Part shown: piece after piece, positions 17,195 through 34,344 of the stretch | How the letters are laid out: each line of letters starts with the position of its first letter | Numbering within the stretch: the stretch's first letter is position 1 | DNA from: a bacterium | Lineage (GTDB): Bacteria; Verrucomicrobiota; Verrucomicrobiia; Limisphaerales; J093 | DNA length: 64,000 nucleotides | Assembly: GCA_021823625.1 (NCBI GenBank) | Contig: JAKANS010000002.1 | Span: forward strand, 7,575 to 71,574 | Direction: 5' to 3' | Program-made: the position numbers and the translations under genes | Notes under the pieces: generated by a model | Database searches by the model: none | Told to the model about the DNA's origin: nothing | What the model saw: the letters and a program-made list of their open reading frames with translations, nothing else

Positions 17195-20100
17195 CTATGG
17201 GTCATAGCGGACCCGGTAATACCGCTGCCCGCCACCGGCCGGGCTGACCAAATTCGTTACCGTCAAAGTCTGGATCGTCGGCGCGGCGTTGGTGGCGGCG
17301 GCGAACACCGTCCACATCGGTGCCACGAGATTGGTGACGTACTCGACCGCGTACCCGGTCTGGGCGGCCGCCCGCCAAGACAACTGGGTCGTGTACGGAT
17401 CCGTGCTGAGGATCTTGAAATCGGTGATCAGCACGTCGTCGAACGGATATTGGTCGTAGCCGTTGGCCAGCCCGTCGCCATCCGAGTCAATGGTCTTGCT
17501 GTCCACCAAACCGACGTTTACATGCAGGGTCTTGCCGTTGCGCAAAGCCACATCCACGCCACTCGCCGGTCCAGCATAATCTTTCACCCAGTGCAACTGG
17601 CCGCCGAACAGGCCGTCGATTTCCTCTTCGCCCAGGTTGGAGGCGGCAAAGTAGATGTTCAGCCCCGGTTCGATCACGATATAGGCCGCGGGATCCAAAG
17701 CCACGCTGTTCGTAGCAAACTCGAGGTAATCCACATACAGCGCGTAGTTGCCGGGCAGCGGGGTGCCCATGCCGTCCGTGGGCGGTCCGAAACGCAGTTC
17801 CCCGTTCGGCAGACTGTCCAGCACGAGCCGGCCGATCGCCGCGTTGTCCTTGAAACCGTCTTTGCGCGCGCCGCGGTCCGCCGCGGCCCAAGTATGGGAC
17901 ACGCTGGTAAACTGGGGGGCGCGAGTGCGGAAGGTGGTGCCCAGCAGGTCACCGTAAGCGGGTTTGCGCAGCAGGCTGAAACCGTCGGACAACTCGATCA
18001 AATTGTTGGCCCCCGCCCCCACGTCGCTAAAGCTGTTCGTGACATTGATGAAGAAGCCCCGGCTGGCAACGACGTGGGTGTTCCGCAGTTTGTAATCGTT
18101 GCCATAATAGTGGACCGCTCCGCTGGCGTTTTCGTAAGCGCTATCCAGGACCGCCGTGTTCGCGAACACTCGCAGGTCGTTGTTGTTTTGGATGGTCCCG
18201 GAATCTTGGAAGAAGTCGCACGCGATTTCGTGCGCGCCCGCCCGGAGCGTCCCGGTGTTGACCATTTGCAGTAGTTGCTGGCCGGCCGGATAATCGCCCC
18301 CGTAGTAAGCGACGTTCGGGATGTTGATCGTTCCGTTGTTGGTCATGTACCGCAACCCCGGCGTCAGGTCGCCCGTCCAGTTCACCAGCGGCCCGCCCAG
18401 CGAGAAGTTGCTGTTCACGGTCAAGCTCTCAGCCGCAATGTCCATTTTGCTGCTCACCAGAAAAGGATCGTCGATCACCACGTTCGTACTCGCCAGAGCG
18501 AGCGTGTGGGTAACCACCTGTTGGGTCCTTGTGAGCAAATCGGCGCTGAGCACAAGACAGTAGATGCTGACATCCACCGGGTTGGTAACGGGGTTGAAAT
18601 AATTCGTGTTGGCGTCGATGAACCAGTTCGACAGCACCAAGGCAAACTGGTTCGACCACACGCCACTCCAGGCGTAGATGTTGCCATTAACGGCGTGCGT
18701 CGAGTCCTTCGACAGGCTCTGGATGGTCAGCAGACCGTTGGTGGAAGCCATGTCGTAAATGAGATTCGGAACATCGATCTTCGCGCCGGCGCTGTTCTTC
18801 AGGTGCTTGGCCTTGATACTCACCGTGCTCATGCCCCGGATGCGGGTGTTACTCAAGTCAACGGTGTCGCCCGCAATCTCGATCCGCCCGCTCGTGTTGG
18901 TCACATCGACGCCCGGCACCGGCGGCGGACGGTTTTCGAGATTGTCGATGAAGCCCCCGTAACCGGCGTACAAGTTGGTCGCATACACGTTGGAGAAGCT
19001 CAAATCGTAAAGGAACGAGTTGAAAATCGGACTATTACCGTTGGCACCGATGGCAAACTCGAACGGCTGCTCCCGGTAGATCCGATAGGCGTAAGGCCGC
19101 ATCGTCGGCACCCAAACCAACAGATTCGTCAAGGACAGCGTGTTGGTATTGTATCCCAAGTAATCCACGAAGTAGATGGCACTGGTTTCAGCCGAAGCCG
19201 TGATGACGTTGGTCGTTTGGGAGGCAATCTCGACCGCCACGGTGCCCATACCCATTCCGGCCGGACCGGGAGGGCCGAATTTGGTCCGAACCGTGAAATT
19301 GGTGTCGCCCACCCCCACAAGGACCGCCTGGCGATAAATATTGGTGGGCATGATCAGGTTCGAGATCGACCCATCGAAGTTAGTCAGGGTCAACCCAGTA
19401 AAGCCCACGACGCCGGTGTTGCCAAACGAGGTGTTATACTCGGGTGGAATGAAAGTGCTGACACCGGTCAGGAACCATCCGAACTTGTTCGTCACCGCAT
19501 GGAATGGGGAGTTGACCAGGAAGCCCCCGCTCTGCGGTCGCAGAATCGCCGCCGTGTTGATGGGACCGAAAATCGGCGGCGGATCCTGTACGCCGGAACC
19601 CCAGTAAAGGTCGAACATCGCGCTGTCGGGGTAGAAAGAGTCCGGTACGTTGTCCCGATCGACATCGAATATCGCGTTGGCGAAGCCGAACGAGGTTAGC
19701 GGCTGCACTTCCAAGCTGCCGCGAGACAAATTCACGTTTTGACCGGTGATCGAGAGGATGCCGGCGTTCCCCACGCCGATATAGCCCGAACTGGCTACGT
19801 TCGTGGCCGAGATCAGCAGCATCGTCTGGCTATAGGCGCCTGGTCCCCAATAGTCCGGAAGCACGTAATACTCCAGTGCGGCGACCCGGCCGGAATTGTC
19901 GTTGACGAAATTGGCCGACGGGCGATGGAAACCGTTGTCGTCGATGTAGTCGAATCGAAAGCCCGGCACACCGATCATGGCGCCGCGGTTCGTGTAGTAC
20001 CGCGTATTCGTGAAATCGTACGGCAGCGTCATCGTGAAATCGTACGGCAACGGCGTGAACGCCTGGAACGTGCCCAGATTGACAAACGCCGTGGCGTCGA

Positions 20101-20221
20101 TTTGCGGCGGGTTGGTGACGATGGTGCCCGAGTTGATGTAAATGGGCAGGGTACTCGAGCCGGCGCGCACGAGCACCGGCAGCACTGCTGCCCCCGCCAG
20201 GAATGTCAAAAGCCGCTTCAT
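17195..20221 (-). CDS. large secreted hypothetical protein (1008 aa), probably beta-helix/adhesin-like
   Basis: Signal peptide MKRLLTFLAGAAVLPVLVRAGS. N/T/G-rich, repeat-poor sequence. Asp-rich Ca-binding-type motif DSDGDGLANGYDQYPFDD. C-terminal domain ending in QRYYRVRYDP. No catalytic motif recognised. Confidence 0.75.
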   Translation of the reverse strand: MKRLLTFLAGAAVLPVLVRAGSSTLPIYINSGTIVTNPPQIDATAFVNLGTFQAFTPLPYDFTMTLPYDFTNTRYYTNRGAMIGVPGFRFDYIDDNGFHRPSANFVNDNSGRVAALEYYVLPDYWGPGAYSQTMLLISATNVASSGYIGVGNAGILSITGQNVNLSRGSLEVQPLTSFGFANAIFDVDRDNVPDSFYPDSAMFDLYWGSGVQDPPPIFGPINTAAILRPQSGGFLVNSPFHAVTNKFGWFLTGVSTFIPPEYNTSFGNTGVVGFTGLTLTNFDGSISNLIMPTNIYRQAVLVGVGDTNFTVRTKFGPPGPAGMGMGTVAVEIASQTTNVITASAETSAIYFVDYLGYNTNTLSLTNLLVWVPTMRPYAYRIYREQPFEFAIGANGNSPIFNSFLYDLSFSNVYATNLYAGYGGFIDNLENRPPPVPGVDVTNTSGRIEIAGDTVDLSNTRIRGMSTVSIKAKHLKNSAGAKIDVPNLIYDMASTNGLLTIQSLSKDSTHAVNGNIYAWSGVWSNQFALVLSNWFIDANTNYFNPVTNPVDVSIYCLVLSADLLTRTQQVVTHTLALASTNVVIDDPFLVSSKMDIAAESLTVNSNFSLGGPLVNWTGDLTPGLRYMTNNGTINIPNVAYYGGDYPAGQQLLQMVNTGTLRAGAHEIACDFFQDSGTIQNNNDLRVFANTAVLDSAYENASGAVHYYGNDYKLRNTHVVASRGFFINVTNSFSDVGAGANNLIELSDGFSLLRKPAYGDLLGTTFRTRAPQFTSVSHTWAAADRGARKDGFKDNAAIGRLVLDSLPNGELRFGPPTDGMGTPLPGNYALYVDYLEFATNSVALDPAAYIVIEPGLNIYFAASNLGEEEIDGLFGGQLHWVKDYAGPASGVDVALRNGKTLHVNVGLVDSKTIDSDGDGLANGYDQYPFDDVLITDFKILSTDPYTTQLSWRAAAQTGYAVEYVTNLVAPMWTVFAAATNAAPTIQTLTVTNLVSPAGGGQRYYRVRYDP

Positions 20222-20268
20222 AGCCGAATCAAAGTCGTTTCCGAGCCAACTCCTGGCTCAATCTGGGT

Positions 20269-21807
20269 TCACGGGGTTGTTCCACCTGTCCCGGTCGTGC
20301 TGGTTGTTCCGGTCGCTGTAACCGTGATGAACGGAGAAAGCCACGGGGTCTGGCTGCTGTCACTCATGCTCCCCGAGAGGACCAGGCGTTCCAAGTCTTG
20401 GATGCTTGCACCGAAAGGATAAATGACCGGCTCCGCCGTAGTCCCGTCATAAGTCCCCCAGAAGAAACCCGGGATACTATCGGCTTCTCCACCTTCGGGA
20501 ACGTTGATGAGAAACTGGCCCAACTTGCTGAAGGTGATCGTGACGGGGGGCTGTATCAGCCCGGGACCGGCCAACGTCTCGCTGCCGTTCTGCGCATCCA
20601 AGTTAACCAGCGGAATGGTCCGGCGGTACATGACCGGCGACGTGACCCCGATGCCGAGGTCCGCCGCGGTGAAAAGCACGTCCGGGGCCGTCAGCGTACG
20701 CTGCACGGTCTGACTACGCTGGGTGTAATTGGTGATGTACTTGTCCACGTACACGTTCGTCAGCGCCACCCAGCCGCCGACCAAGGAATCGTAGTTCACC
20801 CGCGCAAAGCTGACCTTGTCCACGCCCGAACGGAGTGCGACGTCGATCGCCGCCAGGTTGGTTCCCACCGCGTTGGTGAAACCGGAAGGAGCACCCCACG
20901 GGTTTGAGCTGCCGGATCCGGTGCTGCCCCCGATCAGGTAAGTGCCGCTTGCCGTCCCCGGCGACGCCTGCACCACGTTCGTGGCCAACGTTTCGACGTT
21001 GTAGTTGGAGGGCCGGTACAGGTAGCGCAACGCAGCCACGTCGTCGCGGGTCAGGCCGGTGAAGAACAGCCCAGGCGAGGTGTTGACCGTCCAGCCGGAG
21101 GCAAAGATTCCCACCGACAGCCCTATGAACGAGGACACGGAATTGACGCTCGGAACAGTAGGATCCACCTCGAACTCCACCGCTTCATACGTGGGCGTCG
21201 TAATCGTCTGGAGAATCTGATAGGTGTAAAGCACGGAGTTGACGTACGCGCTGGGTTGAAGCGAGAGCGGATCGAAGTTGCGTCTGATGACCGTGTAGAA
21301 AGGAATGTTGTTGATCACGACGCGCGATCGCAGCGTCCAGACGTACCGCTCTGCCGGCGCGGCCCCCATGACCTCCATCAGCGCGGCCATCGCGTACGAC
21401 CGCAGATCGTACAGGTACAGCGCCGTCGCCCGGTGGTTGAAGCGGCGGGTATCCAAGGGAAACTCAGACAGATCCGCGCTCATTTGTGAGGTTGCCGGCA
21501 GGTCGTTGAAGACCTTGATGGCCTTCTCCACCTCTTCCACGCCTTTCGCGCCAAAATAATTGAGGAACGATTCGTCGAACCCGTAGGTGATCAAAGGCAG
21601 GTTCCACCGGTATTCCTCCCCCAAGTTCATCGGCCCCCCCACGTCCGGTGGGAGGGTGTTGTTTCCAAGATCCAGCCCCCCGAGCTGGTAGCCGATTTCC
21701 GGCGTCATCCAGGTGTCGAACGCGCCCAGCAACGAGAACGCCTGGGCGCGGGGCAACGCGCCGGCGAGGGCGAGGACCAGCAGGATTCGAGCGAACAGAG
21801 CACGCAT
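20269..21807 (-). CDS. secreted hypothetical protein (512 aa)
   Basis: Signal peptide MRALFARILLVLALAGALPRAQA followed by FSLLGAFDTW. Thr/Gly-rich tail (TATGTTSTTGTGGTTP). The start lies 3 nt after the stop of the upstream 691-aa gene. No family recognised. Confidence 0.75.
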   Translation of the reverse strand: MRALFARILLVLALAGALPRAQAFSLLGAFDTWMTPEIGYQLGGLDLGNNTLPPDVGGPMNLGEEYRWNLPLITYGFDESFLNYFGAKGVEEVEKAIKVFNDLPATSQMSADLSEFPLDTRRFNHRATALYLYDLRSYAMAALMEVMGAAPAERYVWTLRSRVVINNIPFYTVIRRNFDPLSLQPSAYVNSVLYTYQILQTITTPTYEAVEFEVDPTVPSVNSVSSFIGLSVGIFASGWTVNTSPGLFFTGLTRDDVAALRYLYRPSNYNVETLATNVVQASPGTASGTYLIGGSTGSGSSNPWGAPSGFTNAVGTNLAAIDVALRSGVDKVSFARVNYDSLVGGWVALTNVYVDKYITNYTQRSQTVQRTLTAPDVLFTAADLGIGVTSPVMYRRTIPLVNLDAQNGSETLAGPGLIQPPVTITFSKLGQFLINVPEGGEADSIPGFFWGTYDGTTAEPVIYPFGASIQDLERLVLSGSMSDSSQTPWLSPFITVTATGTTSTTGTGGTTP

Positions 21808-21810
21808 AGG

Positions 21811-23742
21811 TTACCGGACGCGAATAACGCGATAGTAAGCGGTGGAGTTGGTGCCGGGAATGACGGAGGAAGCGACGCTCCCCGGAGCGAACGCAGGTCC
21901 CGCGGCATCCGACCAAGTTTTCAAATCGGTCGAGGATTGGAGTTGGTAGATGGAACCCGGCAGGGCGTTCCATTGGACCAGGAGACCGCCGGTCGTGGGC
22001 TTAATGCCGACCCGCAGGGCACTGTCCCCTTTCGTTGGGTCGGTTCCGGCCAGGAACTCAGCCAGGTTCGAGGCGCCATCGCCGTCGGAATCCACCGTTG
22101 GAATTGGCCAGGTCGAGCTGTCCGGCCCCCAATACAGCGTCTGCCAATCGTCGGGCAGGCCGTCGTGGTTGCGGTCGCGGCCCCAGGTCGTGCCGCTGGC
22201 CACGTCCGACAGCGGCGAAACGCGACCGCCCGTCAACTCATAGGCCAGCCGGAAGCTGTGCACCGTTGCGGGATCCAGATCGCTCAGAATGTAGAAATTG
22301 CTGGTCAGAGCCACCGGCGTCGCCGCTCCGTCCACGAAGAGACGGTAGCCCGCGAGGTCGGTGTAGCCGGCCAGCGGCGCCCAGCTCACCATCAACGAGT
22401 ACGAGTCCAGCGCGGACACGACCGGTGCGCTCGGCGCCGGCAGCACCTGTTCACCCGCAAACCGTTGGCCAAAAATCTCGAAACTCGCGTCCCCGCCGGC
22501 GAATCCGGCCCAAGCCACCAGGAACCGCCCGCTGCCATCCGCCGCCACCATGGGTTGGAGTTGCTGGCTGACGGTGGTGGTGTTGATGAGGAATTCGCCC
22601 CCCGCCGGACCGTCCGAGCTCAGCAAGCGCCCGTAAATGCCGTCGCGCGAGCCATCCTGCCAAAGACTGTCCCACACCACGAGCCGGGTGTCGCCCAGGG
22701 CGGCGAGCTGCGGCGAAAACTGATTGTTCGGCCGGTAGGTGTTGACCACGGCCGGGGCGCCGACCGGCTGCCCCGCGGTGTCGAAATTACCCACGACCAC
22801 GTCCCACATGTTGGTCAGGTCGGGGAGATAACGCTCGCTCCAGGCCGCCACGAAGCCGCCGTTCCAACCGCGGGCCAGCACCGGGTTGGCGCAGAGGTTG
22901 GTCGCGGTGTTGAGCCGGAACTCGTCGCCGAGCGGATTGCCGGAAGCGTCGAACCGCCGGGCGAAGACCTCCACGCTGTTTTCGTAGCTCTGCTGCTCGC
23001 TCACCCACGCCGCGACAAATGCGCCCCCATCGACCGGGGTCACGGCCGGATTCCGCTGGTTGAAACTGCTGAACTGGTTGATTTGAAATTCGCCGCCCAG
23101 CTTGTCGCCGTTCGGCGCGAGGCGCTGCCCAAAGACGCCCTGCATGCTGCCGTCCTGGCCGAAGCCGCTCCAGAGCACGACCAGGTTGCCGTCGGGCAGG
23201 AGTGCGATGGCCGGGTTGGCGCGCTGGTTGCCGGTGGCCGCGTTCAACCGCAGGTCGCCCGTCGTGAAAGTGCCTTCCGGGCCGATGACGCGAGCCCAAA
23301 TGTCCTGCGATCCCTGCTTGCCCCCCTGCCAAACGAAGACCGCCCCACCGTCCTTGAGCAATTGAACCTGCGGATTCTCCTGGTCATCGGCCGTGCTTTC
23401 GTTGACCCGGAACATCCGCGTGGGAATGGGTGAAAGCGAGCCGTTCAGCTTCGCAGCCCCGATGCCGAGACCCGCGCCGTCCACGGCGTTGTCCTGCCAG
23501 ACCGCGTAGCCGCCACTGGCGTCGAGGCTGAGGTGGGGATGCGTCTGGTCCCCTGGCATTCCGCGCGTGATCAGGTACTCGGTGCCTTGCGCCGCGGCCG
23601 TCAGGTCGGCCGCCGCCATGCTGCTCGTAGCGGCCATCCCGAGGGCCAAGGACAGCCGGACCGCCCGGCCAGCGTCACGCGCCCGGACCACGGCCGGGTT
23701 CGCCGACGCGCTTCGAGGGCGTCCACTCATTGTTCCGCTCAT
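21811..23742 (-). CDS. secreted repeat-propeller / FN3 protein (about 643 aa from the ATG at 23742)
   Basis: Six to seven repeats of about 55 aa (pattern EF.(I/V/L)N......Q..P.V....DG.FVV.W......DGS..G(I/V)FGQR(F/L)). An FN3-like segment follows (SYSLMVSWAPLAGYTDLAGYRLFVDG), then DxDxDG-type motifs (DRNHDGLPDD, DSDGDGASNLAEF) and a C-terminal domain ending in AYYRVIRVR. The ORF track starts at 23886. The ATG at 23742 places a Tat/Sec-like basic N-region before a hydrophobic stretch. Confidence 0.75.
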   Translation of the reverse strand: MSGTMSGRPRSASANPAVVRARDAGRAVRLSLALGMAATSSMAAADLTAAAQGTEYLITRGMPGDQTHPHLSLDASGGYAVWQDNAVDGAGLGIGAAKLNGSLSPIPTRMFRVNESTADDQENPQVQLLKDGGAVFVWQGGKQGSQDIWARVIGPEGTFTTGDLRLNAATGNQRANPAIALLPDGNLVVLWSGFGQDGSMQGVFGQRLAPNGDKLGGEFQINQFSSFNQRNPAVTPVDGGAFVAAWVSEQQSYENSVEVFARRFDASGNPLGDEFRLNTATNLCANPVLARGWNGGFVAAWSERYLPDLTNMWDVVVGNFDTAGQPVGAPAVVNTYRPNNQFSPQLAALGDTRLVVWDSLWQDGSRDGIYGRLLSSDGPAGGEFLINTTTVSQQLQPMVAADGSGRFLVAWAGFAGGDASFEIFGQRFAGEQVLPAPSAPVVSALDSYSLMVSWAPLAGYTDLAGYRLFVDGAATPVALTSNFYILSDLDPATVHSFRLAYELTGGRVSPLSDVASGTTWGRDRNHDGLPDDWQTLYWGPDSSTWPIPTVDSDGDGASNLAEFLAGTDPTKGDSALRVGIKPTTGGLLVQWNALPGSIYQLQSSTDLKTWSDAAGPAFAPGSVASSVIPGTNSTAYYRVIRVR

Positions 23743-23992
23743 GTAAGCTGTGTCCACAAGCTTTCGCACTTCGTTGGGCAAGCCCCGCCTTTGCGGTCGA
23801 CCTGCCCGGTCACGCTGCTTTTCTGAATACCGTGGCCGCGAGCACCACTTAGCAAGTCGCCTGCCACTCGACTGACCGAACGTCATCGCTCCGCCAGCCC
23901 TTCAAATCTCCCCAAACCGCAGAATCGAGGACCACCCCCGGCGGTTCCGGCAAGTTGGGGTCGGCCTTGGTCCCGAGCCGGCCCTCGAACGC

Positions 23993-24577
23993 TCACTGGG
24001 CCGGACTGAACGGCGATTGCGACGGCAATTTGTTGGGATCGTACGGGAGATTATTTTCGTCGTGCACCCGGTTGCCGGCCGGATCGATGATCGTGGGGGT
24101 CACGAAAATGACCAGATTCTTCTTCGAACTCGACTTCGCCTCGCTGCGGAACAAGCGGCCGACCAGCGGCAGATCGCCGAAGACGGGCACCTTGTCCTTG
24201 ACCTTGGTGACGCGCTCGGAGATCAAGCCGCCCAGCACCACGGTCTGTCCGTCCCACACGATCGAACTGGTCACGACCTGGCGGATGCGGAACCGCGGCA
24301 GCGGCACCGGCGCGGCCAGGTTGCCGACGACCGCCCGGAATTGGCCGGGATCGTCGTAGCCGAGGAATTCGGTAACCGTCGGCAGCAGGTTTAGTTGGAT
24401 GGTGTAACCATCCGCCGAAACGTGCGGGATCACGTCCAAGGTCGGGCCGATCGGCACCGGGACGGTGGTGGGTTGAATCGTCGGGGTGGCCGCCGCCTGG
24501 TTGACCACCTGGGCGTGGGCCAGGCCGCCCAACCCCAAAACCGCCGCACCGAGCAGAACAAGCGCTTTGATTCTCAT
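23993..24577 (-). CDS. secretin C-terminal half (second part of the PF00263-type secretin domain) with its own signal peptide
   Basis: MRIKALVLLGAAVLGLGGLAHAQ signal, then LDVIPHVSADGYTIQLNL, WDGQTVVLGGLISE, KVPVFGDLPLVGRLFRS and NLVIFVTPTIID, which is the canonical C-terminal secretin signature. It is in the same frame as the upstream 826-aa ORF and is separated from it by a single TAA. Confidence 0.8.
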   Translation of the reverse strand: MRIKALVLLGAAVLGLGGLAHAQVVNQAAATPTIQPTTVPVPIGPTLDVIPHVSADGYTIQLNLLPTVTEFLGYDDPGQFRAVVGNLAAPVPLPRFRIRQVVTSSIVWDGQTVVLGGLISERVTKVKDKVPVFGDLPLVGRLFRSEAKSSSKKNLVIFVTPTIIDPAGNRVHDENNLPYDPNKLPSQSPFSPAQ

Positions 24578-24610
24578 ATCGAATGTCTGGTCGAAAGTTG
24601 GATCCACCGG

Positions 24611-27061
24611 TTACTGGACGACCCCAACACCCGTCGTCGTCCCACCACCCACCGTGCCTGTGCCGGTAGTAGTGGTGCCGCCGCCGATGCCGCCGGCCTG
24701 GTTATACGAAACCACCGTCTGGAGATCGATGATTTGAATCTGTGCCTGGCGACCGCTCACGGTCGTCACTTTCGGGGCGGAGAGCACATCCACGCCGCCG
24801 CGTTGTTCCAGTGCCCGGATCACCACCCGGAATTGGGGATCCGTCATGATGCCGGTGACCGTCGCGAGGGTTGGGATCGCTGTGCCGCCGACCTCCGTGC
24901 TGCGCAATCCAGAGGTGATTATTTGATCCGTACCGGCGTTAGGCGCCACCGCCGGCGCTCCGAAATTGCCCGGAAACACGCCGTAAGGGTTCGCGGCGGA
25001 GGGCGTGCCCGCATACGAAGGCGCCGTCCCGCCAGAGAGGCCGACGTTGCCGCCCGCCATGTTGAAATTACCCAAATACCAGTCGAAGCCGAGGGCCTTC
25101 GCGTCGTCCTGCCCGATTTCGACGAACTTGACCTCGATGGTCACCTGATCCGGCGTCATGTTTAGGGCTTGGATCGCCTGATCGATGATCTCGAGATCCT
25201 GCATGGTCGCCCGAACCAAGAGGAGCCCGGTGCGGTCATTAAAGAACAAAGCTTTGCCTTGGGCGTTCTGGAAACCCGCGCCGGCCGCGCCGCCTTGGAA
25301 GCCGCCCGCGCCGCTGAAACCGCCGCCACCCTGGCCGAGAATGTTCTGGCCGCCCAGATCGACACCTGCCGCGGTGAAGTATTGCCGCACGAGGTCGTTG
25401 ACGTAGGACATCGGGGTCGATCCCGCCACGCCAGTGGGACTTCCACCGCTGCCGAGTCCACCGCCACCGCCTTGGCCACCGAGTCCACCGCCTTGGCCGC
25501 CATAGCCACCGCCACCCCCGCCGATGCCGCCACCACCACCGCCACCATAGCCGCCGCCGCCGCCGAAACCGCCGCCGCCTTGGCCGCCATAGCCACCACC
25601 GCCGATACTCACCCGCGCAATCGACAGACCGCCACCGCCGCCTTGGCCGCCATAACCGCCACCACCACCGCCGTAACCGCCACCACCACCACCACCGCCG
25701 AGGCCGCCGCCACCGCCGAGACCTCCGCCACCCAAACCGCCACCCCCGGTACCGCCAGTACCACTGCCGCCGAGCACACTGGAATAATCGATGGCATAGA
25801 CGCCTTCGAGTCCTTGCACGAACGTGTTCGGGTTGACCTTGAAGGTCTTGGTAAAGAGCTGTTCGCCTTCGGGAATCTTCTTGCTGAACACGATCGCGTA
25901 TTCCTCGACCGAGTACTTGATCTGCTTCTCAGCCACTTTGACGATTGCGTCCAGCACGTCGGCCAAGCGCACGTCATGCAGTGGCGGCTCGATCTTGATC
26001 TGGACTTCGCCCAGGTCGAACTGCTCCTGCTCGGGCGCCGCGGTCACCGGCTGCCCGGTCTGCGGATCGAAGGTGGTCAGCCCGGCCGCCGCCTGACGCG
26101 GCTGGGAGTCGATGGTCGGGGCAATGATGAAATTGAGCCCCTTCTTGTCCGGGTCGCGCAGACGGGCTTCCTCGTCCAGATAGGTGACGGCCTCGCTCAA
26201 CGACACGCCGGGGAAGTCCACTTTCTCGAGGCGGATGCGATCAAGCTTGGAATAAATCATTCGGCGGCCTGGACCGGTATAAACGGTATTGGTACGGGCA
26301 AACGGGTTGGCCACCGGCAGCTTCTCGCGCGAGATGGACGGATTCCAAGCCTCCTCGACCTCGACCATCTTGTTGCGAGCCATGATTTCGCGCTTCACGG
26401 CATCTTGCTTGTACCGCAACTCCTGAACCATGGTGAGATAATAACCCGCGGCGCGGTTCTCCGGATCGATCTTGATCGCCTGCCGAAGCTTCCCTTCCGC
26501 CTCGTCCAATTTGCCCATTTCATAAAGCAGCTTGGCATCCTGCACCAAACTACCTGCGTCCAACTTGGACTGGTGGGCCTCCGGCAACAGGGCGACGATT
26601 TCCTTGCTGGGGGTTCGCCCCTCGAGCGCCTTGAGCGCCTTGTCCACCTTCACCTTCAACTCTTGCGCCTCGGGGTTCTTCGGATCCACCCGGAGCACGC
26701 GCGACACCTGCCGGTTGGCCTCTTCGTAGGCGGCGCTGGCATAGGATTTCTTGCTGAGCGCCAGGTAGGTGGCGGAGAAGCCGGCCACGGTCTCTTTGCG
26801 CTCGTTCTCGATGCTCGTGTCTCCGATGCGCTGGACCAAGCTCCAGCACTCTTCGTACAACCGGGACGCATCCATGAGGTTGCCCTGGCGGGACTGGGCG
26901 GCCGCCTCCTTCAAATCTTTGCGCAAGAGAATCCGAAGTTCCTCCCGCCGTACGGCTTCCTCGGCCGCAGTCGTCTGCGCCGCATTCGTCTGGGCCCGGG
27001 CAGTGGGCACCGCCACCCAGAGGGCCGCCGCGGCGACGGTGATGAAGGCAAATCGAATCAT
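24611..27061 (-). CDS. secretin N-terminal part (TPR-like region, N-domains, Gly-rich domain, first strands of the secretin domain); Amuc_1098/PilQ-like
   Basis: Signal MIRFAFITVAAAALWVAVPTARAQ (ATG at 27061). TPR-like helices (KLLYEMGKLDEAEGKLRQAIKIDPEN). Secretin N-type domains (IRLEKVDFPGVSLSEAVTYL; LLLVRATMQDLEIIDQAIQALN; VTIEVKFVEI). VLSAPKVTTVSGRQAQIQI marks the start of the secretin domain. The ORF ends at the TAA at 24611-24613. Confidence 0.8.
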   Translation of the reverse strand: MIRFAFITVAAAALWVAVPTARAQTNAAQTTAAEEAVRREELRILLRKDLKEAAAQSRQGNLMDASRLYEECWSLVQRIGDTSIENERKETVAGFSATYLALSKKSYASAAYEEANRQVSRVLRVDPKNPEAQELKVKVDKALKALEGRTPSKEIVALLPEAHQSKLDAGSLVQDAKLLYEMGKLDEAEGKLRQAIKIDPENRAAGYYLTMVQELRYKQDAVKREIMARNKMVEVEEAWNPSISREKLPVANPFARTNTVYTGPGRRMIYSKLDRIRLEKVDFPGVSLSEAVTYLDEEARLRDPDKKGLNFIIAPTIDSQPRQAAAGLTTFDPQTGQPVTAAPEQEQFDLGEVQIKIEPPLHDVRLADVLDAIVKVAEKQIKYSVEEYAIVFSKKIPEGEQLFTKTFKVNPNTFVQGLEGVYAIDYSSVLGGSGTGGTGGGGLGGGGLGGGGGLGGGGGGGGYGGGGGGYGGQGGGGGLSIARVSIGGGGYGGQGGGGFGGGGGYGGGGGGGIGGGGGGYGGQGGGLGGQGGGGGLGSGGSPTGVAGSTPMSYVNDLVRQYFTAAGVDLGGQNILGQGGGGFSGAGGFQGGAAGAGFQNAQGKALFFNDRTGLLLVRATMQDLEIIDQAIQALNMTPDQVTIEVKFVEIGQDDAKALGFDWYLGNFNMAGGNVGLSGGTAPSYAGTPSAANPYGVFPGNFGAPAVAPNAGTDQIITSGLRSTEVGGTAIPTLATVTGIMTDPQFRVVIRALEQRGGVDVLSAPKVTTVSGRQAQIQIIDLQTVVSYNQAGGIGGGTTTTGTGTVGGGTTTGVGVVQ

Positions 27062-27118
27062 GGATGGGTTATTTCGCAAAACGGAAGACATAAAGCAATG
27101 CGGATTACGGAGCGGCCT

Positions 27119-27916
27119 TCAGCGGTTGAGCGAGATCACGGTTCGGCGTTTGGTTTTCTCGTCCTCGATTGTAACGTCCGAGGCACTGATGGCAACGACA
27201 TTGTAGGTGGAACCGGCCACGGTGAGCTTGCTGCCCTGCCTTTCCTTCAAGAAGGTGCGGCCTTCGCCCTCGTGGCGCAGGTCGGCCGAGTAACCCGCCA
27301 CTTCGTTGTAACCTTTGTCCTTGGGAACCACCACGGTGGTGCGCGAATCCGCCAGCTCCACGCGAAAGCCATCCGGGCGGTCCTTCGGCCCCATGACCTC
27401 TTTGAGCAGGATGACATCCGGTTTGTCGTTGATGGCAAGAATCACGATGCGACCGTGCTGCAGGCTCGACACGGTTGCCGCCTGGTTTTGCACGTAGAAG
27501 CGGTACCTCGTGGCGGTGCCGCTTCGAGAGAGGCCCTGGAATTCGATGCGGAGCATCAGCGGCGTGATATTCGTAACGATCAGTCCCTCCAAACCTGAAG
27601 GCGGCGGGGGAATCGGCGGAAAGCCTCCGGGACCCCTGCCTTTCATCCAGGTGCCGGAAGGATTGAACAAACCGTGTTTGCCGGTCCCGAAACCGAACTT
27701 GATGGGCCCCTTCAGTCGGGCGAGCACGGCTTCGTTCGTGGAGAGGTTGAGTTCGGGAATCGGCGCCACCTTGGGGTCATCCACCGCACTCGTCACCACC
27801 GCGAGCCTCTCCCGGACGTTGGCCACTTCGAAAGGCAGATAACCGGCCGCCACCGCCAAGCTGAGCAAGACCACGCTCAGCAGTATCTTCTCGTAGTGCT
27901 TCTTTAGAAAGTCCAT
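27119..27916 (-). CDS. membrane-anchored hypothetical protein in the PilP / Amuc_1099 position
   Basis: 265-aa ORF with an N-terminal TM (ILLSVVLLSLAVAAGYLPF). It lies between the PilO-position gene and the secretin, with an 8-nt gap upstream. The function is inferred from position only. Confidence 0.55.
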   Translation of the reverse strand: MDFLKKHYEKILLSVVLLSLAVAAGYLPFEVANVRERLAVVTSAVDDPKVAPIPELNLSTNEAVLARLKGPIKFGFGTGKHGLFNPSGTWMKGRGPGGFPPIPPPPSGLEGLIVTNITPLMLRIEFQGLSRSGTATRYRFYVQNQAATVSSLQHGRIVILAINDKPDVILLKEVMGPKDRPDGFRVELADSRTTVVVPKDKGYNEVAGYSADLRHEGEGRTFLKERQGSKLTVAGSTYNVVAISASDVTIEDEKTKRRTVISLNR

Positions 27917-27924
27917 GCGTCAAC

Positions 27925-29013
27925 TTAGGGGGAGGGCGTGGCTTCCGGAGCCGCCGCTGGATCGGGTGGAGCCGCTTGCGGATCGCCTGCAGCCGCCTGC
28001 CCGCGCGCACCGCCTGACCGGCTGGCCTTGGCTTCGTTCGGATCGCGGAGCCTGACGATGTCCACCCAGGCTGTCACGCGGAAGGGTTTTTCGCTGACGA
28101 TCTTCGCGGCGTCTTCCTGGGCGGTCAGCGTCGCCGAATCCATCGGTTGCGGGGCCATTGGCATGCGCCCGCGCAAACCGTACCGCATCATCATCATCAT
28201 CGCGGGACTCATCGCAGGCATGTTACCCTCGCCGCCGCCCGTGGGCGCGTAGATGTCAACCGTATTGGTGTCCCCGGTATCGACGATCAGGTTTTTGAGC
28301 AGCAAGCTGTGAGGGTTGCGGGCCAGACCTTCGAGCACGGACTGCAACTCGCTGCTGAAACAGCGGAAAGTGAACTCGTAAGGGATCACCACGGCCAGGT
28401 CGTTGGTAACGGCTTTTCGCGTCCAGTAATCCGAAGTGCCGCCCATCATTCCGATTCCGGGCGTGTCTTGCGTGGCCAGCGAGATACGGCGGATCCGTTC
28501 GAGTTCCAAAACCTTCGCATCGAAGATAATCTCGCAGACTTCCTTGATTTCCATGAGCGCGCGCGTCAACGGCACCACGGTGTTGGCCTCGACGAACGCG
28601 AGTGGTTTCTGGGCGGCGAAGGTAAAGGCGTAATTGTCAGGGAGTTTCGTGCTCGACTGCCGCGCCAACCGCTGCAGGTAGTCCACCGTGGTGTCGAGCA
28701 GGAGTTTGAAATCGCCGCCGCTGAGGTTGGTCGGGTACGGTACGGGGACGAACTGTTGCTTCGCCCGCGCGGCAAAGACCTCGAGTTTCTCCTCCTGCTG
28801 CCGCGCGGCGGCGATGTTGTCCACCTTCCGGTTGCCCGGATGCGGTTTCATGCGGAGCAGCCCCTGCAACTCAGTGTCCTGCGCCTCGAGCTTGGTCGTC
28901 ACCTCCGCCGAATGCTGGATCTTGAGGTAGAGAAAATAGCCGGCAAAACCCAGGAGAGCCAAAGCCGCGACCCCGCTGATGACCAGCGTGAGGTTTTTTT
29001 TGATCCAGTCCAT
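27925..29013 (-). CDS. Amuc_1100-like / PilO-position pilus-complex protein
   Basis: N-terminal TM (LTLVISGVAALALLGFAGYFLYL), then a coiled-coil. The segments IPYEFTFRCFSSELQSVLEGLARNPHSLLLKNLIV and EKPFRVTAWVDIVRL resemble, from memory, the Akkermansia Amuc_1100 segments LEIAFQGDRESVLKAMNAI...FTVNSIRI and QVFVKVSLNLVHF. There is a 3-nt gap to the pilMN stop. Confidence 0.5.
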   Translation of the reverse strand: MDWIKKNLTLVISGVAALALLGFAGYFLYLKIQHSAEVTTKLEAQDTELQGLLRMKPHPGNRKVDNIAAARQQEEKLEVFAARAKQQFVPVPYPTNLSGGDFKLLLDTTVDYLQRLARQSSTKLPDNYAFTFAAQKPLAFVEANTVVPLTRALMEIKEVCEIIFDAKVLELERIRRISLATQDTPGIGMMGGTSDYWTRKAVTNDLAVVIPYEFTFRCFSSELQSVLEGLARNPHSLLLKNLIVDTGDTNTVDIYAPTGGGEGNMPAMSPAMMMMMRYGLRGRMPMAPQPMDSATLTAQEDAAKIVSEKPFRVTAWVDIVRLRDPNEAKASRSGGARGQAAAGDPQAAPPDPAAAPEATPSP

Positions 29014-29016
29014 ACC

Positions 29017-30924
29017 TTACAGTTTGATGGGCGCGGCGAGCTTCAGTTTCACCTCAAACCGGAAGGTGTTGGTGGTCTGGTCAGGCTGCATGTTGCCGGA
29101 GAGCACCGTGCCATTGGTGCCGCTGAGGAAAAGCGGATTGGCCCGCAACGCCTCCTGCACCGCCAGCATGATCTCGGTGTTCGCGGTGGGATTGGCGATG
29201 TGCCAGTCGATCGCCCGGCAGGTCAGGTTCACGGTGGAGATTTCGTTGGTGTTGGGCTTGCTGGGTGCTGCACCCGCATCCGGCGCGCCCGAGGCGTCGC
29301 TGGCGCCGCTGGCGTCGCCGCCCGAAGAGTCACCGCCCGTATCCTGCGTGATTTTGAAGCCTTTCGGGACCAAGCCATAACGCATCATCATCCGGATATC
29401 CATCATCATGGGCTTCGGCTTGTTGCTCTCGTCCTCCTGCTCTTCCGGTGGCGCCGAAAGGTTCTCCGCCGCCAGGCGTTCGATCCAGACCGCCGTCTTC
29501 ATTCCCGGTTGGGTGGTCACCTTCTCCGCCGTCACCAAAGAGTTACGCAACGCCGTTAGAATATCCGCCCAAGCGAACCGGTCCTCGAGCCACTCCGTGT
29601 ACTGATCCACCACCTTCTGCGCCTCATCGCGTTTGCGCATGGCGGCCTTAAACTGCTCCGCATTCTGCTTCAGTCGGGCCACCTTGGGGTCACGTTCGTC
29701 GATCGCCTGTTGCTTCACTGCGGCGACGCGATCGAAAAACATGCCCATCGCGAACACGGCCAGGATCAAGCTGATGACCGCCGCAATGAAATAAGGCTTT
29801 TTCTGGTTGAACTGTTGGCGCTGGAGGATCGTCTTCGGAATCAGGTTCAGCTCCACCGGACACCGCGTCGGATTGCGCAAACCGAGCCCGACGACCTCGC
29901 CAAACGAATGGGCCACCCGCGCCAATTCTTCGATATTGACGCCCGGGGCGATCTCCACGTTCCGGAATGGATTGAAGTAATCCACCGGCAGGTTGAGCTT
30001 CTCCGCGAAGAACTGCGAGGTGTAGGCCATGATGGAGGCCCCGCCCGAAAGAAATACCCGCTGAGGCGCCGAGCCGCCTTGCTGGCTCCGGTAAAACTGG
30101 ATGGTCTGATTGACCTGGATGTGCAGGCGGGTCATCACCTGCCGGGCGATCTTGGAAATCGCCGCCTGGCGCGGGCTGTCAGGCTCTTCGTAAGCGCCGC
30201 CCAAGCTGACGAAGCCCTCGGCGATCTTGATTTTCTCCGCCTCGGCGAACGGCAGTTTCGACTCGGCGGCGAACTCCTGGGTGATCGAGTTCGCGCCAAT
30301 GTTGATGCTGCGGCAATAGATCTTGTCCTTCTCGAAAAAGAGGACGTTGCTGGTCTTGGCACCGATGTCCAGCAGCATCGAACAGCCTTCCTGATCGCCG
30401 TAATTATAGCGGAAGGCATTCGCGAGCGCTGCCGCGGAAACATCCACCAGTTGCAGCCGCAAGCCCTGCCCTTCCGCGGCCTTGAACAGGCCCTCGACCA
30501 AGTCGGTCTTGATGGCGACGAGGAGAACCTCCAGTTCGCCCGAAGGCAGATTGCCGAGAATCTGGTAGTCCCAGACGACCTCCTCCAGTGGGAAAGGCAC
30601 GTTCTGCTGGGCCTCGTACTGGATGATCTGGGTGGCCTTCGAGGCGTCCACCGGCGGCAGCTTGATGAACTTCGAGAACGCTTGGAAACCTGGGGCGCAA
30701 ACGTTGCAGTCGCGCGCGTTGAAGGTCTTGCTGCCGACCACCTCCTGCAAAGCACGCAGCACCACGCCCTCCCGGGCGCTATCCTGCGCGCCCGCAAATC
30801 CCAACGGCTTGACCGCGTAACGCAGCAGCCGGAGGGCGCCCGCTTCGGTGGCGTCAAATTCGGCCAGCTTCAGCGTCCCGGCGCCAAAGTCGATGCACAA
30901 AAAGGATTTCGACGTGTTCAGCAT
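29017..30924 (-). CDS. pilM: PilM-like actin-fold ATPase fused to a PilN-like membrane segment (Amuc_1101-like)
   Basis: Residues 1-350 look PilM/FtsA-like (FLCIDFGAGTLKLAEF, LVDVSAAALANAF, MLLDIGAKTSNV, VFLSGGAS). ELNLIPK and a TM helix (YFIAAVISLILAVFAMGMFF) follow as in PilN, then a coiled-coil and a C-terminal extension of about 130 aa. Confidence 0.8.
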   Translation of the reverse strand: MLNTSKSFLCIDFGAGTLKLAEFDATEAGALRLLRYAVKPLGFAGAQDSAREGVVLRALQEVVGSKTFNARDCNVCAPGFQAFSKFIKLPPVDASKATQIIQYEAQQNVPFPLEEVVWDYQILGNLPSGELEVLLVAIKTDLVEGLFKAAEGQGLRLQLVDVSAAALANAFRYNYGDQEGCSMLLDIGAKTSNVLFFEKDKIYCRSINIGANSITQEFAAESKLPFAEAEKIKIAEGFVSLGGAYEEPDSPRQAAISKIARQVMTRLHIQVNQTIQFYRSQQGGSAPQRVFLSGGASIMAYTSQFFAEKLNLPVDYFNPFRNVEIAPGVNIEELARVAHSFGEVVGLGLRNPTRCPVELNLIPKTILQRQQFNQKKPYFIAAVISLILAVFAMGMFFDRVAAVKQQAIDERDPKVARLKQNAEQFKAAMRKRDEAQKVVDQYTEWLEDRFAWADILTALRNSLVTAEKVTTQPGMKTAVWIERLAAENLSAPPEEQEDESNKPKPMMMDIRMMMRYGLVPKGFKITQDTGGDSSGGDASGASDASGAPDAGAAPSKPNTNEISTVNLTCRAIDWHIANPTANTEIMLAVQEALRANPLFLSGTNGTVLSGNMQPDQTTNTFRFEVKLKLAAPIKL

Positions 30925-31078: not shown

Positions 31079-32095
31079 CTAACCGACCCGTTTCCGGAAC
31101 CACGCAACGGTTTGTTCGAGTCCATCTGTCAAAGACACTTTCGGTTCCCAACTAAGCAGTTTTCGTGCTCGCGAGATGTCGGGCCGACGTTGTTTGGGGT
31201 CATCTTGCGGGAGCGGTCGAAAAACGATCCGGCTGCGGGAACCGGTGGCCCGAATGATCGCCTCGGCGAACTCCAAGACTTTCATTTCGTTCGGGTTGCC
31301 GATGTTGGTGGGCAGGTGCGAATCGCACAACATCAGGCGGTAAATGCCTTCGATCAGGTCCGAGCAATAGCAAAAGCTGCGGGTCTGGCTGCCGTCGCCA
31401 AATACCGGCAGCGGTTGGTTGCGCAACGCGGCGGCGATGAACGCCGGGACAACCCGCCCGTCGCCCATGCGCATCCGTGGACCGTATGTGTTAAAGATCC
31501 GCACGATTCGCGTTTCGAGGCCATGTTCCTGGTGGTAGGCCATGGTCAAGGCCTCGGCGAAACGCTTGGCCTCGTCGTAACATCCACGCGGGCCGACTTG
31601 GTTCACGTTGCCCCAGTAGCTTTCCGTCTGGGGATGTACCAACGGATCGCCATAGACTTCCGACGTGGAGGCGAGCAGAAAACGCGCGCCTTTGTACTTG
31701 GCCAGGCCGAGAGCCTTGTGCGTGCCCAGCGACCCAACTTTGAGCGTCTGGATGGGCAGCTCGAGATAATCCACCGGACTCGCCGGTGAGGCAAAATGCC
31801 ACACATAGTCCACCGGTCCGTCCAAGAAGAGGTACTCAGTTGCGTCTTGGCAAACGAACCGGAATTTCGCGTCGCCCGCGTGATGCGCGATGTTTTCCAC
31901 CGACCCGGTCACCAGGTTGTCGATCACGACCACCCGATGGCCTCGCGCCAACAGCAGGTCCACCAAGTGCGAACCCAGGAAACCCGCGCCGCCGGTCACC
32001 ACCGAGACGGGTGCTGAAGCGCGGCGAGGACGGCGGGACGGGGGCGGGGCTTTCTTCATGCGTTCGGGTAATTCGCGGGAGGTTCGGGTGGGCAC
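31079..32095 (-). CDS. UDP-glucuronate decarboxylase (UDP-xylose synthase), SDR family
   Basis: [16 protein letters not shown] Rossmann motif, [15 protein letters not shown] catalytic Yxxx[11 protein letters not shown]. The start is either the GTG at 32095 or the ATG at 32059. Confidence 0.85.
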
Positions 32096-32100
32096 GGGGG

Positions 32101-33498
32101 CTATTTGGCGCCGGCCCCGGAAAGGACCGCGGGCACCGTCCGCAGCAGGATGCTGCAGTCCAGCCAGAGCGACCAGTTGTCGATGTAGTGCAGGTCAAGG
32201 CGCACCCACTCGTTGAAGTCCTTGACCTGGTTGCGACCGCTGACCTGCCACAAACAGGTCAGTCCCGGTTTGACGCTGAGGCGGCGCCGGTGAGCCGGGT
32301 CGTCGAATCGCTTCACTTCATGGACCGGCAACGGCCGGGGTCCCACCAGGCTCATCTCGCCGCGAAGGACGTTGAACAACTGCGGCAGTTCGTCGATGCT
32401 GTACTTGCGCAGAAACCGGCCAAAGGGCGTGATGCGGGGATCGTTGGTCACCTTGAACACCGGCCCGCTCATTTCGTTCAGCGTCTCCAACTCATGCCGG
32501 CGTTGCTCCGCGTCGCTCACCATGGAGCGGAACTTGAGCATCGTGAACGGCCGCCCGTTCAGGCCGCTGCGTTCCTGGCGGAAAAGGACGGGGCCGGGGG
32601 ACGACAACCGCGTGCCGATCGCCGCCACCAACATGATCGGCGCCGTCACCACCAGCAGCGCCAGCGCGCCGAAGAAATCAATGGCTTGCTTGGCGAAGAG
32701 CGGCCAGACGCTTGAGGGGGCGGAGCGAAAAACCAGCACCGGCCGGCCTTGCAACACCGCCACGCTGGTTTTGGAAATCCGGGGTTTGAAGAAATCCGCC
32801 AGCAGCCAGACCTCCACGCCTTCGCGTTCGCACAAAGCGATGGCCTGCTCGATCTGGCCGAAGAGCGTGTGCTGGGCGGCAAGCAGGATGCCGTTGGGAG
32901 AATGCTCGTGCATCAGGTCCACCAGCAGTTCGACCGGCGCCTGGTTCAGGTCGAGACGAGCCACCACCTGGAACCCGCCGCCCTGGTCACGGTTCAACTC
33001 GAACAACAACGGTTCAGTCTCCTCGGGTGAACCCACCAAGATCAAGCGCTGCTTGATTTGCGCCTGTCCCATGCTGCTGCTCCGCCAGCGCAAGAGCAAC
33101 TCCTCCTTGAGGGCCATCAACCCAAAGCTGGTCACCCCGAAGAAGATCAGCACCGACCGGGCGATGATTTGCGCTTCCCGCGTGATCCACAGCAACAGAA
33201 TCAGACCCACGACCGTTCCCGAGCACGCCTGGAACAGGCTCCAAGCCGTCTGGGTCCGGCTGGGCAACCACGGGCGCCGGTAGAAACCGCTCAAGACCAA
33301 AGCCACTGGCGCCAGCGGAATGACCAGCAAAAACACCCACAAGTAGTACTCGAAAGGGTAGATGTTCTTGGCCCCCCGGAAGACCTCGAACTGCCAATGC
33401 TCACGGACGGCGTGGGCCAGGAAGAAGCTTAAAGCGAACAACCCGGCGTCCACCGCCATCTGAATCTGTTGCTGAACTTGTCGCTGTTGTCGCAGCAT
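32101..33498 (-). CDS. polyprenyl-phosphate glycosyl-1-phosphate transferase (bacterial sugar transferase, EPS priming enzyme)
   Basis: Several N-terminal TM helices. C-terminal PF02397-type strings are present: [57 protein letters not shown]. Confidence 0.85.
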
Positions 33499-33615
33499 CG
33501 GTGATCAGACACTGACTCGCCAGACCGCGTCGGAACTCTGCCACCCTCGGAGGCCGGCGGGCAATTCTTTACGGGCCACCGCCCGTACTCCTTCCAGAGC
33601 AATCATGATCGCACC

Positions 33616-34344
33616 CTACGGAGCCGCCGCCATCGCGGGTGGTCCGGCGGTCCTCTGAAATTCCGGCACCGCTGCCTCAAGAAACCGTTTGGCGCGCTCC
33701 GCCGCCTGCGCCTCCTGACCGGCCGGGCAGCCCACGAAAGCGCTCACGTACGCCCAGCGCGGCAAGACACCGTGCCGCACCAAATCCCAGGTCAGCCAGC
33801 CGATCCGGCCCCAGTGGCTGGCCGTCAGCCGGTCCTGGGCCACGAACCAGAACATATAGACCGCGGTTTGCCGCACCTGTTGTCCGTTTTCCTGCTGGAC
33901 CAGCCGCCCGGCCGTGAATTCCCGCACCGGCAACGCGTAGCGGTGAGGCCGCTCCATGGGCACCGCGATGGTTTCCCGGTTCAGGATCTGCCACCCTTGC
34001 GAGGTAAGGCAGTACTCGGGTTTGTGGATGCTCGTCCGGTCGGTCCCCATCAACACCACGCTGAGCAAGACCTGGAAACCATCGGGGGCGCGGTAAAGGC
34101 GTCGCCCGAAACTCGTGTCTTTCGGCAGCACGTCCAACTCCAGCTTCGTGGGTTCGACGTTCGTCGAAACGAACTCGCCGACGCGCTCCGGCAGTTGGAT
34201 CGTGACCCGCAACCCATCGCCGGCCACGCAGCGCACGCCCGGCTCCCCGAGTCGCTGGCGGCCCTTCAGGTGCAGCAGCATCCCCGCACCGGCCGCGATC
34301 AAGACAAGGCCCGCGATCCCCACGTTCAGCCGCAAGCGCTTCAT
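33616..34344 (-). CDS. EpsI-family exosortase-associated protein
   Basis: The ATG at 34344 overlaps the exosortase stop (ATGA at 34341-34344). N-terminal TM (LNVGIAGLVLIAAGAGMLL). HKPEYCLTSQGW matches the H-(S/K)-P-E-x-C-L motif of EpsI, and YMFWFVAQDR is also present. The ORF track's longer version (to 34584) overlaps the exosortase and is rejected. Confidence 0.75.
   Translation of the reverse strand: MKRLRLNVGIAGLVLIAAGAGMLLHLKGRQRLGEPGVRCVAGDGLRVTIQLPERVGEFVSTNVEPTKLELDVLPKDTSFGRRLYRAPDGFQVLLSVVLMGTDRTSIHKPEYCLTSQGWQILNRETIAVPMERPHRYALPVREFTAGRLVQQENGQQVRQTAVYMFWFVAQDRLTASHWGRIGWLTWDLVRHGVLPRWAYVSAFVGCPAGQEAQAAERAKRFLEAAVPEFQRTAGPPAMAAAP

Follow-up and report, generated by a model that had tools for sequence, protein, structure and literature searches.

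Secretins are large gated outer-membrane channels that serve secretion of types II and III, type IV pili and filamentous phage export. To our knowledge, the barrel domain of every characterized secretin is one polypeptide. Here we describe a putative secretin encoded by two adjacent genes, for chain A and chain B, in a 64,000-nucleotide stretch of a Verrucomicrobiota assembly (GCA_021823625.1, contig JAKANS010000002.1, positions 7,575 to 71,574; the window hereafter). In Akkermansia muciniphila, Amuc_1098 (PilQ) is more abundant than any other outer-membrane protein; it is one chain of 907 residues, with a tetratricopeptide repeat (TPR) module at the N terminus and the secretin domain at the C terminus (PMC4960237). 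Split secretins are known from the rhizobial Rhc-type type III secretion system (T3SS; RhcC1/NolW plus RhcC2) and, as HrcIIC1/C2, from Pseudomonas syringae; this split is conserved in the lineage and its significance is unknown (PMC3574062, PMC3973906). Fission of another type IV filament component produced the two adjacent genes tadB and tadC, whose products are still functional (PMC6668835). A loop bounded by two conserved pivot glycines forms the central gate of a secretin (466-496 in XcpD), the loop tips converging in the lumen, and G453 of Vibrio cholerae GspD is a hinge for gate opening (PMC10550240, PMC7545093). No split secretin other than the Rhc type was found in the literature searched, and no description of a secretin cut inside the barrel domain was found in the full-text literature searched, the coverage of which excludes subscription journals.

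We estimate a probability of roughly 0.8 that chains A and B constitute a conserved, working two-chain pilus secretin, produced by an old fission of a Verrucomicrobial Amuc_1098-type PilQ within the central-gate loop. An earlier note on this DNA, made from the sequence alone, had left four options unranked, and it is the genuine two-chain secretin among them that is supported by the comparisons below.

All features of the split secretin lie on the minus strand of the window; the earlier note did not state the strand, and its open reading frame (ORF) coordinates and codon counts were borne out by the sequence. In the ORF list, ORF A spans 27091..24611 including the stop and encodes 826 aa, or 816 aa if translation begins at Met 27061, the start used by gene callers. 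The TAA stop codon of chain A (24613..24611) is followed by a 33-nt spacer (24578..24610) and then by ORF B, which extends from an ATG at 24577 to 23993 and encodes 194 aa (204 aa counted from GTG 24607). Beyond the TAA the frame of ORF A continues CCG GTG ..., and ATG 24577 is the 12th codon past the stop. The two ORFs are therefore in the same frame with a single TAA between them, as had been noted, and A, stop and B add up to 826 + 1 + 204 = 1031 codons. No terminator- or promoter-like site was found between A and B on the minus strand. When the inserted DNA was searched for elsewhere in the window only itself was matched, giving no sign of a repeated mobile element, and a search for other secretin-like pieces within the window found none.

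In favor of a sequencing or assembly error at the TAA there is only the prior chance that a lone stop interrupting a long frame is erroneous. A public protein collection contains the 194-aa product counted from the ATG, which is encoded on seven contigs, and six of these loci were fetched. The TAA, the spacer and the ATG were identical in eight fetched loci: five ENA metagenome assemblies with MEGAHIT-style contigs, one NCBI metagenome-assembled genome (MAG; GCA_021839785.1) and two loci from Logan unitigs, which are near-identical variants from other sequencing runs. The most diverged strain (L007) had five differences in the 221-nt junction, of which three were synonymous, one was in the spacer and one was a conservative change in the leader of chain B. 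The stop at 24611-24613 is real, with the same TAA in eight other independent assemblies from different samples and assemblers, including a diverged strain, and the same architecture occurs in about 40 other species; an error at this position has next to no probability.

One genome per GTDB species was scanned with chain B, giving 80 loci, all from MAGs and nearly all labeled Verrucomicrobiota. Classification by tblastn and ORF tracing was possible for 78 of these, and two lay at contig ends. The secretin was split at the same loop in 38 of the 78 species-representative loci and was one continuous ORF in 40. A further, more divergent split locus (L092) was recovered from a metagenome contig, and A and B were adjacent in every locus with enough flanking sequence. 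Among the best 150 matches from 1.84 billion representatives, most were single-chain proteins of 900-1500 aa, and at least four clusters at 50% identity were stand-alone B-type proteins (P0124, P0130, P0145 and P0142). The closest homologs were Verrucomicrobiota proteins named 'GspD'.

Some candidates were set aside. About 20 matches were short (160-260 aa); four were true stand-alone B proteins, and the others inspected were contig-edge fragments or miscalled starts. P0133 (L095, ERZ27252276 k141_2150541) was seen on one 1.3-kb contig and most likely represents an assembly chimera; this 238-aa sequence has an RRRLL-type leader and approximately 45 residues of a PQQ-dehydrogenase-like N terminus joined exactly at the pivot Gly (ALGPTLDV...), a striking place for a junction. 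Separately, two MAGs labeled 'Akkermansia muciniphila' (L044 and L048) carry a soil-/freshwater-type secretin with approximately 60-68% identity to that of the window, continuous in one and split in the other, and their organism labels look unreliable.

The ratio of nonsynonymous to synonymous substitution rates (dN/dS) was calculated by the Nei-Gojobori method for the window against seven orthologous species. The ratio was 0.06-0.13 for the whole of A, 0.02-0.08 for the A C-terminal module and 0.04-0.14 for mature B, with dS values of 0.7-1.9, and 3.5 in one comparison, that were near or at saturation in several cases. Because dN/dS was low in both A and B across the seven species, both halves are kept by purifying selection. 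These values bear on the possibility of a pseudogene, in which the secretin lost its function through a nonsense mutation or a small insertion and is now decaying in pieces. Such a history would fit the uninterrupted form of more distant relatives and of Akkermansia Amuc_1098 (907 aa), each a single protein, and the earlier note had proposed that uninterrupted orthologs without the hydrophobic segment would point to a strain-specific pseudogene. Distant orthologs do have that form, but the split is clade-wide and under purifying selection, which is not the pattern of a strain-specific pseudogene. The split is present in about 40 species, between several pairs of which synonymous divergence is near or at saturation, with dN/dS at 0.02-0.14 in both halves; neither half contains further stops or frameshifts, and the leader is kept every time. 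Decay is extremely improbable on this evidence, and the conserved split, the low dN/dS and the independent assemblies together refute the pseudogenization and sequencing-error options of the earlier note.

The junction and the leader were scored in 37 split loci. The stop codon of A was TAA in 18, TAG in 12 and TGA in 7, and the gap between A and B varied from -4 to 63 nt (median 28) with no conservation of the spacer. A and B shared a frame in 14 of the 37 loci, compared with the one third expected by chance (binomial p = 0.6), and in some of the in-frame loci a second stop was present within the spacer. The emphasis that the earlier note had placed on the in-frame arrangement is thus correct for the window but not meaningful for the family, with only 14 of 37 orthologs in frame; the comparison indicates that the arrangement is a coincidence of the window lineage. 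The two in-frame ORFs with one TAA between them are also what would favor programmed stop-codon read-through or recoding, by which a single-chain secretin would be made with the hydrophobic segment as an internal insert. The gate loop of such a product would be lengthened by approximately 34 residues, a hydrophobic helix among them. With frames shared at the chance level of one third, variable stop codons, second stops in some in-frame spacers, an unconserved spacer and one pair of genes that overlaps by 4 nt, read-through is therefore very unlikely.

A leader was found on chain B in every split locus scored. In the window it occupies 24512..24577 and reads MRIKALVLLGAAVLGLGGLAHA in translation, a Sec-type leader with predicted cleavage between AHA and Q. 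All 37 B chains start with ATG, and their presequences are 20-34 aa long (median 23), each with a hydrophobic core and with Lys or Arg close to the first residue. Ala occupies position -1 in 33 chains and Gly in the other 4, and most chains have a small residue at -3. The mature chain starts with Gln, as QVV in 25 loci, QVI in 5 and QVL in 4, and in 34 of the 37 this Gln (+1) lies exactly 21 residues from the pivot Gly. With dN/dS of 0.2-0.7, the leader changes more quickly than the mature part, as is usual for signal peptides. The earlier note had recognized that the downstream piece begins with a signal peptide, and its argument that a recent nonsense mutation would bring no signal peptide of its own is sound, given that an equivalent leader is present in all 37 split orthologs. 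The recurrence of break position, leader and mature N terminus in approximately 40 species is far beyond chance. Cleavage was judged from simple rules and conservation, and the chain A leader by inspection; from these we infer Sec export of both chains and cleavage of B after AHA. The predicted mature N-terminal peptide of chain B is (pyro)QVVNQAAATPTIQPTTVPVPIGPTLDVIPHVSADGYTIQ.

The Pfam scan divided the secretin domain PF00263 (169 profile positions) between the two chains. Positions 1-50 matched chain A residues 760-809 (E 7e-4) and positions 46-169 matched chain B residues 40-175 (E 1e-28, 100.3 bits), so the break falls inside the secretin domain, as had been proposed, and a complete domain is reached only by A and B together. 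The secretin motifs quoted in the earlier note are all present in the translations. Continuous relatives align through the junction, where the window adds a block of approximately 40 residues made up of the stop, the spacer, the Met and the leader. In HMMER alignments with solved secretins, SGRQAQIQIID-LQTVV, the strand that precedes the cut, was paired with DNGEASFIVG453-EEVPVIT of V. cholerae GspD. In chain B, the Gly of GPTLDVIP (24446..24448), an invariant column in two alignments, aligned with the Gly of GspD EVGIKLKVVPQI, numbered G481 by counting from alignment coordinates, and the segment before the chain B pivot Gly aligned with the GspD residues preceding G481. Because the flanking anchors align at the G453 strand of GspD and at the second pivot Gly, the alignments place the cut inside the central-gate loop. 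From SGRQ to the pivot Gly this loop is 47-65 residues long and Gly-rich in continuous members of the Verrucomicrobial family; in split forms the A tail after SGRQ varies from 31 to 63 residues, and the B segment is constant at 21.

The features on either side of the cut can be assigned from these anchors. Chain A residues 625-794 (24710..25219) comprise a predicted N3-like domain and the first secretin strands, ending ...VLSAPKVTTVSGRQAQIQIIDLQTVV, the putative ascending strand of the gate; this region (dN/dS 0.02-0.08) contains model strands 143-175 and aligns with V. cholerae GspD as far as G453 and the next strand. The C-terminal tail of chain A (24614..24709; SYNQAGGIGGGTTTTGTGTVGGGTTTGVGVVQ) is Gly/Thr-rich and would be the A half of the central-gate loop. 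On the other side, the mature N terminus of chain B (24449..24511; QVVNQAAATPTIQPTTVPVPI) is predicted to be the descending strand of the gate. Mature chain B in full (23993..24511, 172 aa plus stop) would supply the rest of the secretin barrel domain, corresponding to model strands 214-344, and includes the membrane-inserting motif VPVFGDLPLVGRLFRS at 24143-24190 as well as LVIFVTPTII.

An AlphaFold model was made for a chimera in which A 625-826 was fused directly to mature B, using an alignment of 74 homologs. Mean pLDDT was 74.5 and pTM was 0.59. Strands 165-175 and 214-233 were well predicted and flank an unstructured segment at 179-208 (pLDDT <50), with the junction (202/203) inside it; the chain A tail corresponds to the low-confidence segment 179-202. 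A Foldseek search against the PDB gave 40 significant matches, all of them secretins (GspD, XcpQ, PilQ, InvG, RcpA, BfpB and pIV), with E values of 1e-18 to 1e-10 over roughly 350 aligned columns. The single-chain chimera, used as a proxy for the complex, is consistent with a secretin subunit fold for the joined A and B sequence.

The C terminus of chain A behaves as a genuine free end in these comparisons, with its variable length across orthologs and, in one locus, an added domain. At L022:3401-3925 (JAJXZJ010000032.1) the A chain extends beyond the Gly-rich gate tail into a domain of approximately 110 aa before the stop, in which a coiled coil accompanies a match to Peptidase_S74 'chaperone of endosialidase' (PF13884, E 3e-10). 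Provided that the gate has been mapped correctly, such a passenger would lie at the gate tip, in the lumen of the channel.

Some three quarters of PF00263 fall in chain B, the membrane-inserting motifs among them, and the pilotin-like TPR module resides in chain A. The pair could on that basis have become sub-functionalized, with B alone forming the outer-membrane pore and A acting as a separate periplasmic pilotin-like accessory whose residual strands lie outside the barrel. Rhizobia provide a precedent in that the N-domain protein NolW is separate from a complete-barrel protein. However, the last strands of A (TTVSGRQAQIQ...) are as conserved as in continuous relatives, with dN/dS at 0.02-0.08 for the A C-terminal module, and B is without the first two strands of the barrel domain, one of which belongs to the gate hairpin, such that a B-only sheet would be incomplete. 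Also at odds with an accessory role for A is its constant adjacency to B, seen at each locus where the flanking sequence was long enough. We consider a pore made of B alone to be quite unlikely.

If A and B do form a two-chain secretin, chain A would begin with its leader and the pilotin-like TPR module, continue through the Gly linker into the N3-like domain and the first secretin strands, the ascending gate strand among them, and end in a flexible Gly/Thr tail. Chain B would be translated separately from its own ATG, 33 nt beyond the A stop, exported via its own Sec-type leader and cleaved after AHA. The descending gate strand would come from its mature N terminus (QVVNQ...), 21 residues before the pivot Gly, followed by the remaining barrel and the membrane-inserting motifs. 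The N-terminal strand of B would pair antiparallel with the last strand of A and so rebuild the gate hairpin minus its tip. Equal numbers of A and B would pair in the periplasm or outer membrane to give a normal secretin ring, in which the gate hairpin of each subunit would be open at the tip and the gate would be lined by free chain ends. Chain A may also help to pilot chain B, since A has the pilotin-like TPR module and B has the membrane-inserting motif. It is the 1:1 co-assembly of A and B, along with any effect on gating, that we infer here.

The open gate may be either adaptive or simply tolerated through disorder of the loop. We hypothesize, as a possible but doubtful extension, that it is adaptive: a brush of free ends would seal and open the channel in a way unlike any characterized secretin, passenger domains could be carried in the lumen, and the TPR-bearing chain A would pilot chain B. 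Were this so, a 12-15-mer ring would bear 24-30 free flexible ends (the Gly/Thr tails of A and the QVV... ends of B) rather than closed hairpins, the Peptidase_S74 domain on the A tail at L022 would suggest passenger display in the channel lumen, and a secretin barrel would be assembled from two separately exported fragments.

Several observations weigh against the two-chain secretin or limit how firmly it can be held. The proposal is drawn from sequence comparison and the chimera model, and the predicted cleavage of B, as described, from simple rules and conservation. The Secretin match of chain A alone scores 19.6 bits, under the curated cut-off of 27.5 bits. The first pivot position (GspD G453) is Ile, Val or Asp in the Verrucomicrobial family, with no Gly in A. 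The alignment behind the chimera contains continuous homologs, which bias the single-chain model toward them. Finally, phylogeny does not settle whether the two split groups share one fission event: in a neighbor-joining tree of the concatenated conserved parts (100 bootstraps), the main split group, which includes the window, was a clade in 97 of 100 bootstraps, the second split group in 35 and the union of both in 1. A single fission is suggested because the break point, the QVV motif and the 21-residue spacing are shared; two fissions, or a fission followed by re-fusion, are possible. At the junction itself, chain A ends ...GVGVVQ (24614-24622) and mature B begins QVVNQ (24497-24511), and some continuous relatives (P0065) hold a single ...GVGQVVQQA... 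at this position. A small duplication of the 'VVQ' motif may therefore have accompanied the fission, as its origin or as its trace.

An N-terminal export leader of chain A (26993..27091, minus strand) was identified by inspection of the translation and would be cleaved between MSSVLRNNPSMIRFAFITVAAAALWVAVPTARA and QTNA; it has a basic residue, a hydrophobic core and an A-R-A site. Several Pfam TPR families matched residues 117-219 (26435..26743), a pilotin/BamD-like module, and the same TPR (BamD/pilotin-like) module has been described for Akkermansia Amuc_1098 (PMC4960237). Between the TPR module and the N3-like domain, composition revealed a nearly pure glycine linker of GGYGGQGGGG-type repeats (25440..25775, approximate limits), approximately 110 residues long (chain A ~440-550). 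The continuous homolog P0009 also carries a Gly linker. In the window, the linker yields long spurious antisense ORFs, for example an 809-aa ORF on the plus strand (25169..27598).

The genes upstream of chain A are also on the minus strand. Directly upstream is a 265-aa gene with no Pfam match (27119..27916), present in the same order in all strain contigs. It is preceded by an Amuc_1100-family gene of 362 aa (27925..29013), a label that rests on a precomputed PF28028 match to the identical gene in three other contigs (L001, L002 and L005), as no match was obtained with the local copy of Pfam. A PilM-like gene of 635 aa (29017..30924) matched PilM_2 (E 2.5e-35) and FtsA. The operon order is therefore PilM-like, Amuc_1100-family, 265-aa gene, A and B, and by gene content this operon is assigned to the Akkermansia Amuc_1098-1102 type of cluster. 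No T3SS genes were found near the split secretin in the window.

Directly upstream of the pilM-like operon is a further minus-strand block (31079-35312) encoding an exosortase EpsH (34341-35312, E 2e-48), a bacterial sugar transferase (32101-33498) and an NAD-dependent epimerase/dehydratase (31079-32095), which puts a PEP-CTERM/exopolysaccharide-type locus beside the pilus-like cluster. Downstream of chain B, three large minus-strand genes (17195-23886) encode proteins of 691 or 602 aa (weak fn3/TSP3 matches), 512 aa and 1008 aa; the 512-aa and 1008-aa genes have no precomputed Pfam match on record. The order of the three genes is kept in all strain contigs, and genes of similar size are present at the divergent split locus L092. 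They may belong to the same system.

A conserved cut through the gate hairpin would show that the gate can do without covalent continuity, and implies that two fragments exported by Sec can complement each other to make a secretin protomer. The split clade would offer a natural system for the study of gate sealing and opening and of barrel folding and insertion. Annotation pipelines are likely to mark such A/B pairs as partial genes or frameshifts. Akkermansia is of medical interest, and its most abundant outer-membrane protein belongs to this family, although that copy is unsplit.

Among known systems, the Amuc_1098-1102 cluster shares the family and the operon type with the window, with TPR and secretin regions in the secretin and PilM/FtsA-like and Amuc_1100-family neighbors. 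Amuc_1098 differs in being one polypeptide, whereas in the window two genes, divided within the secretin domain, encode the protein, the second with its own leader, and the single polypeptide of approximately 900-1000 aa is absent. The Rhc-type secretins share a split that is conserved across a lineage. On plasmid pNGR234a, Pfam finds only N0 and Secretin_N domains in NolW, and in the rhcC2 candidate the whole of PF00263 (1-169) together with pilus-N and BON domains; tblastn of chain B against plasmids gave only generic secretin matches and did not locate rhcC2. Because the rhcC2 candidate holds the full PF00263 and NolW only N0/Secretin_N, the Rhc division lies between domains, in unlinked genes of a T3SS, whereas the cut in the window is inside PF00263, in adjacent genes of a system that resembles a type IV pilus. 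TadB and TadC are alike in their origin by fission into two adjacent genes of a type IV filament machine, but there the fission separated duplicated domains of an inner-membrane platform protein, with no beta-barrel cut and no new export signal. The canonical secretins (V. cholerae GspD, Pseudomonas aeruginosa XcpD/XcpQ and V. cholerae PilQ) have the same fold as the chimera model (Foldseek E ~1e-18 to 1e-16) and share the second pivot Gly and the C-terminal VP.LGD.P..G.LFR motif with the window family. Their gate is a closed hairpin of approximately 28-30 residues (XcpD 466-496, PMC10550240), whereas that of the window family is Gly-rich and 47-65 residues long and, in the split clade, would present two free ends.

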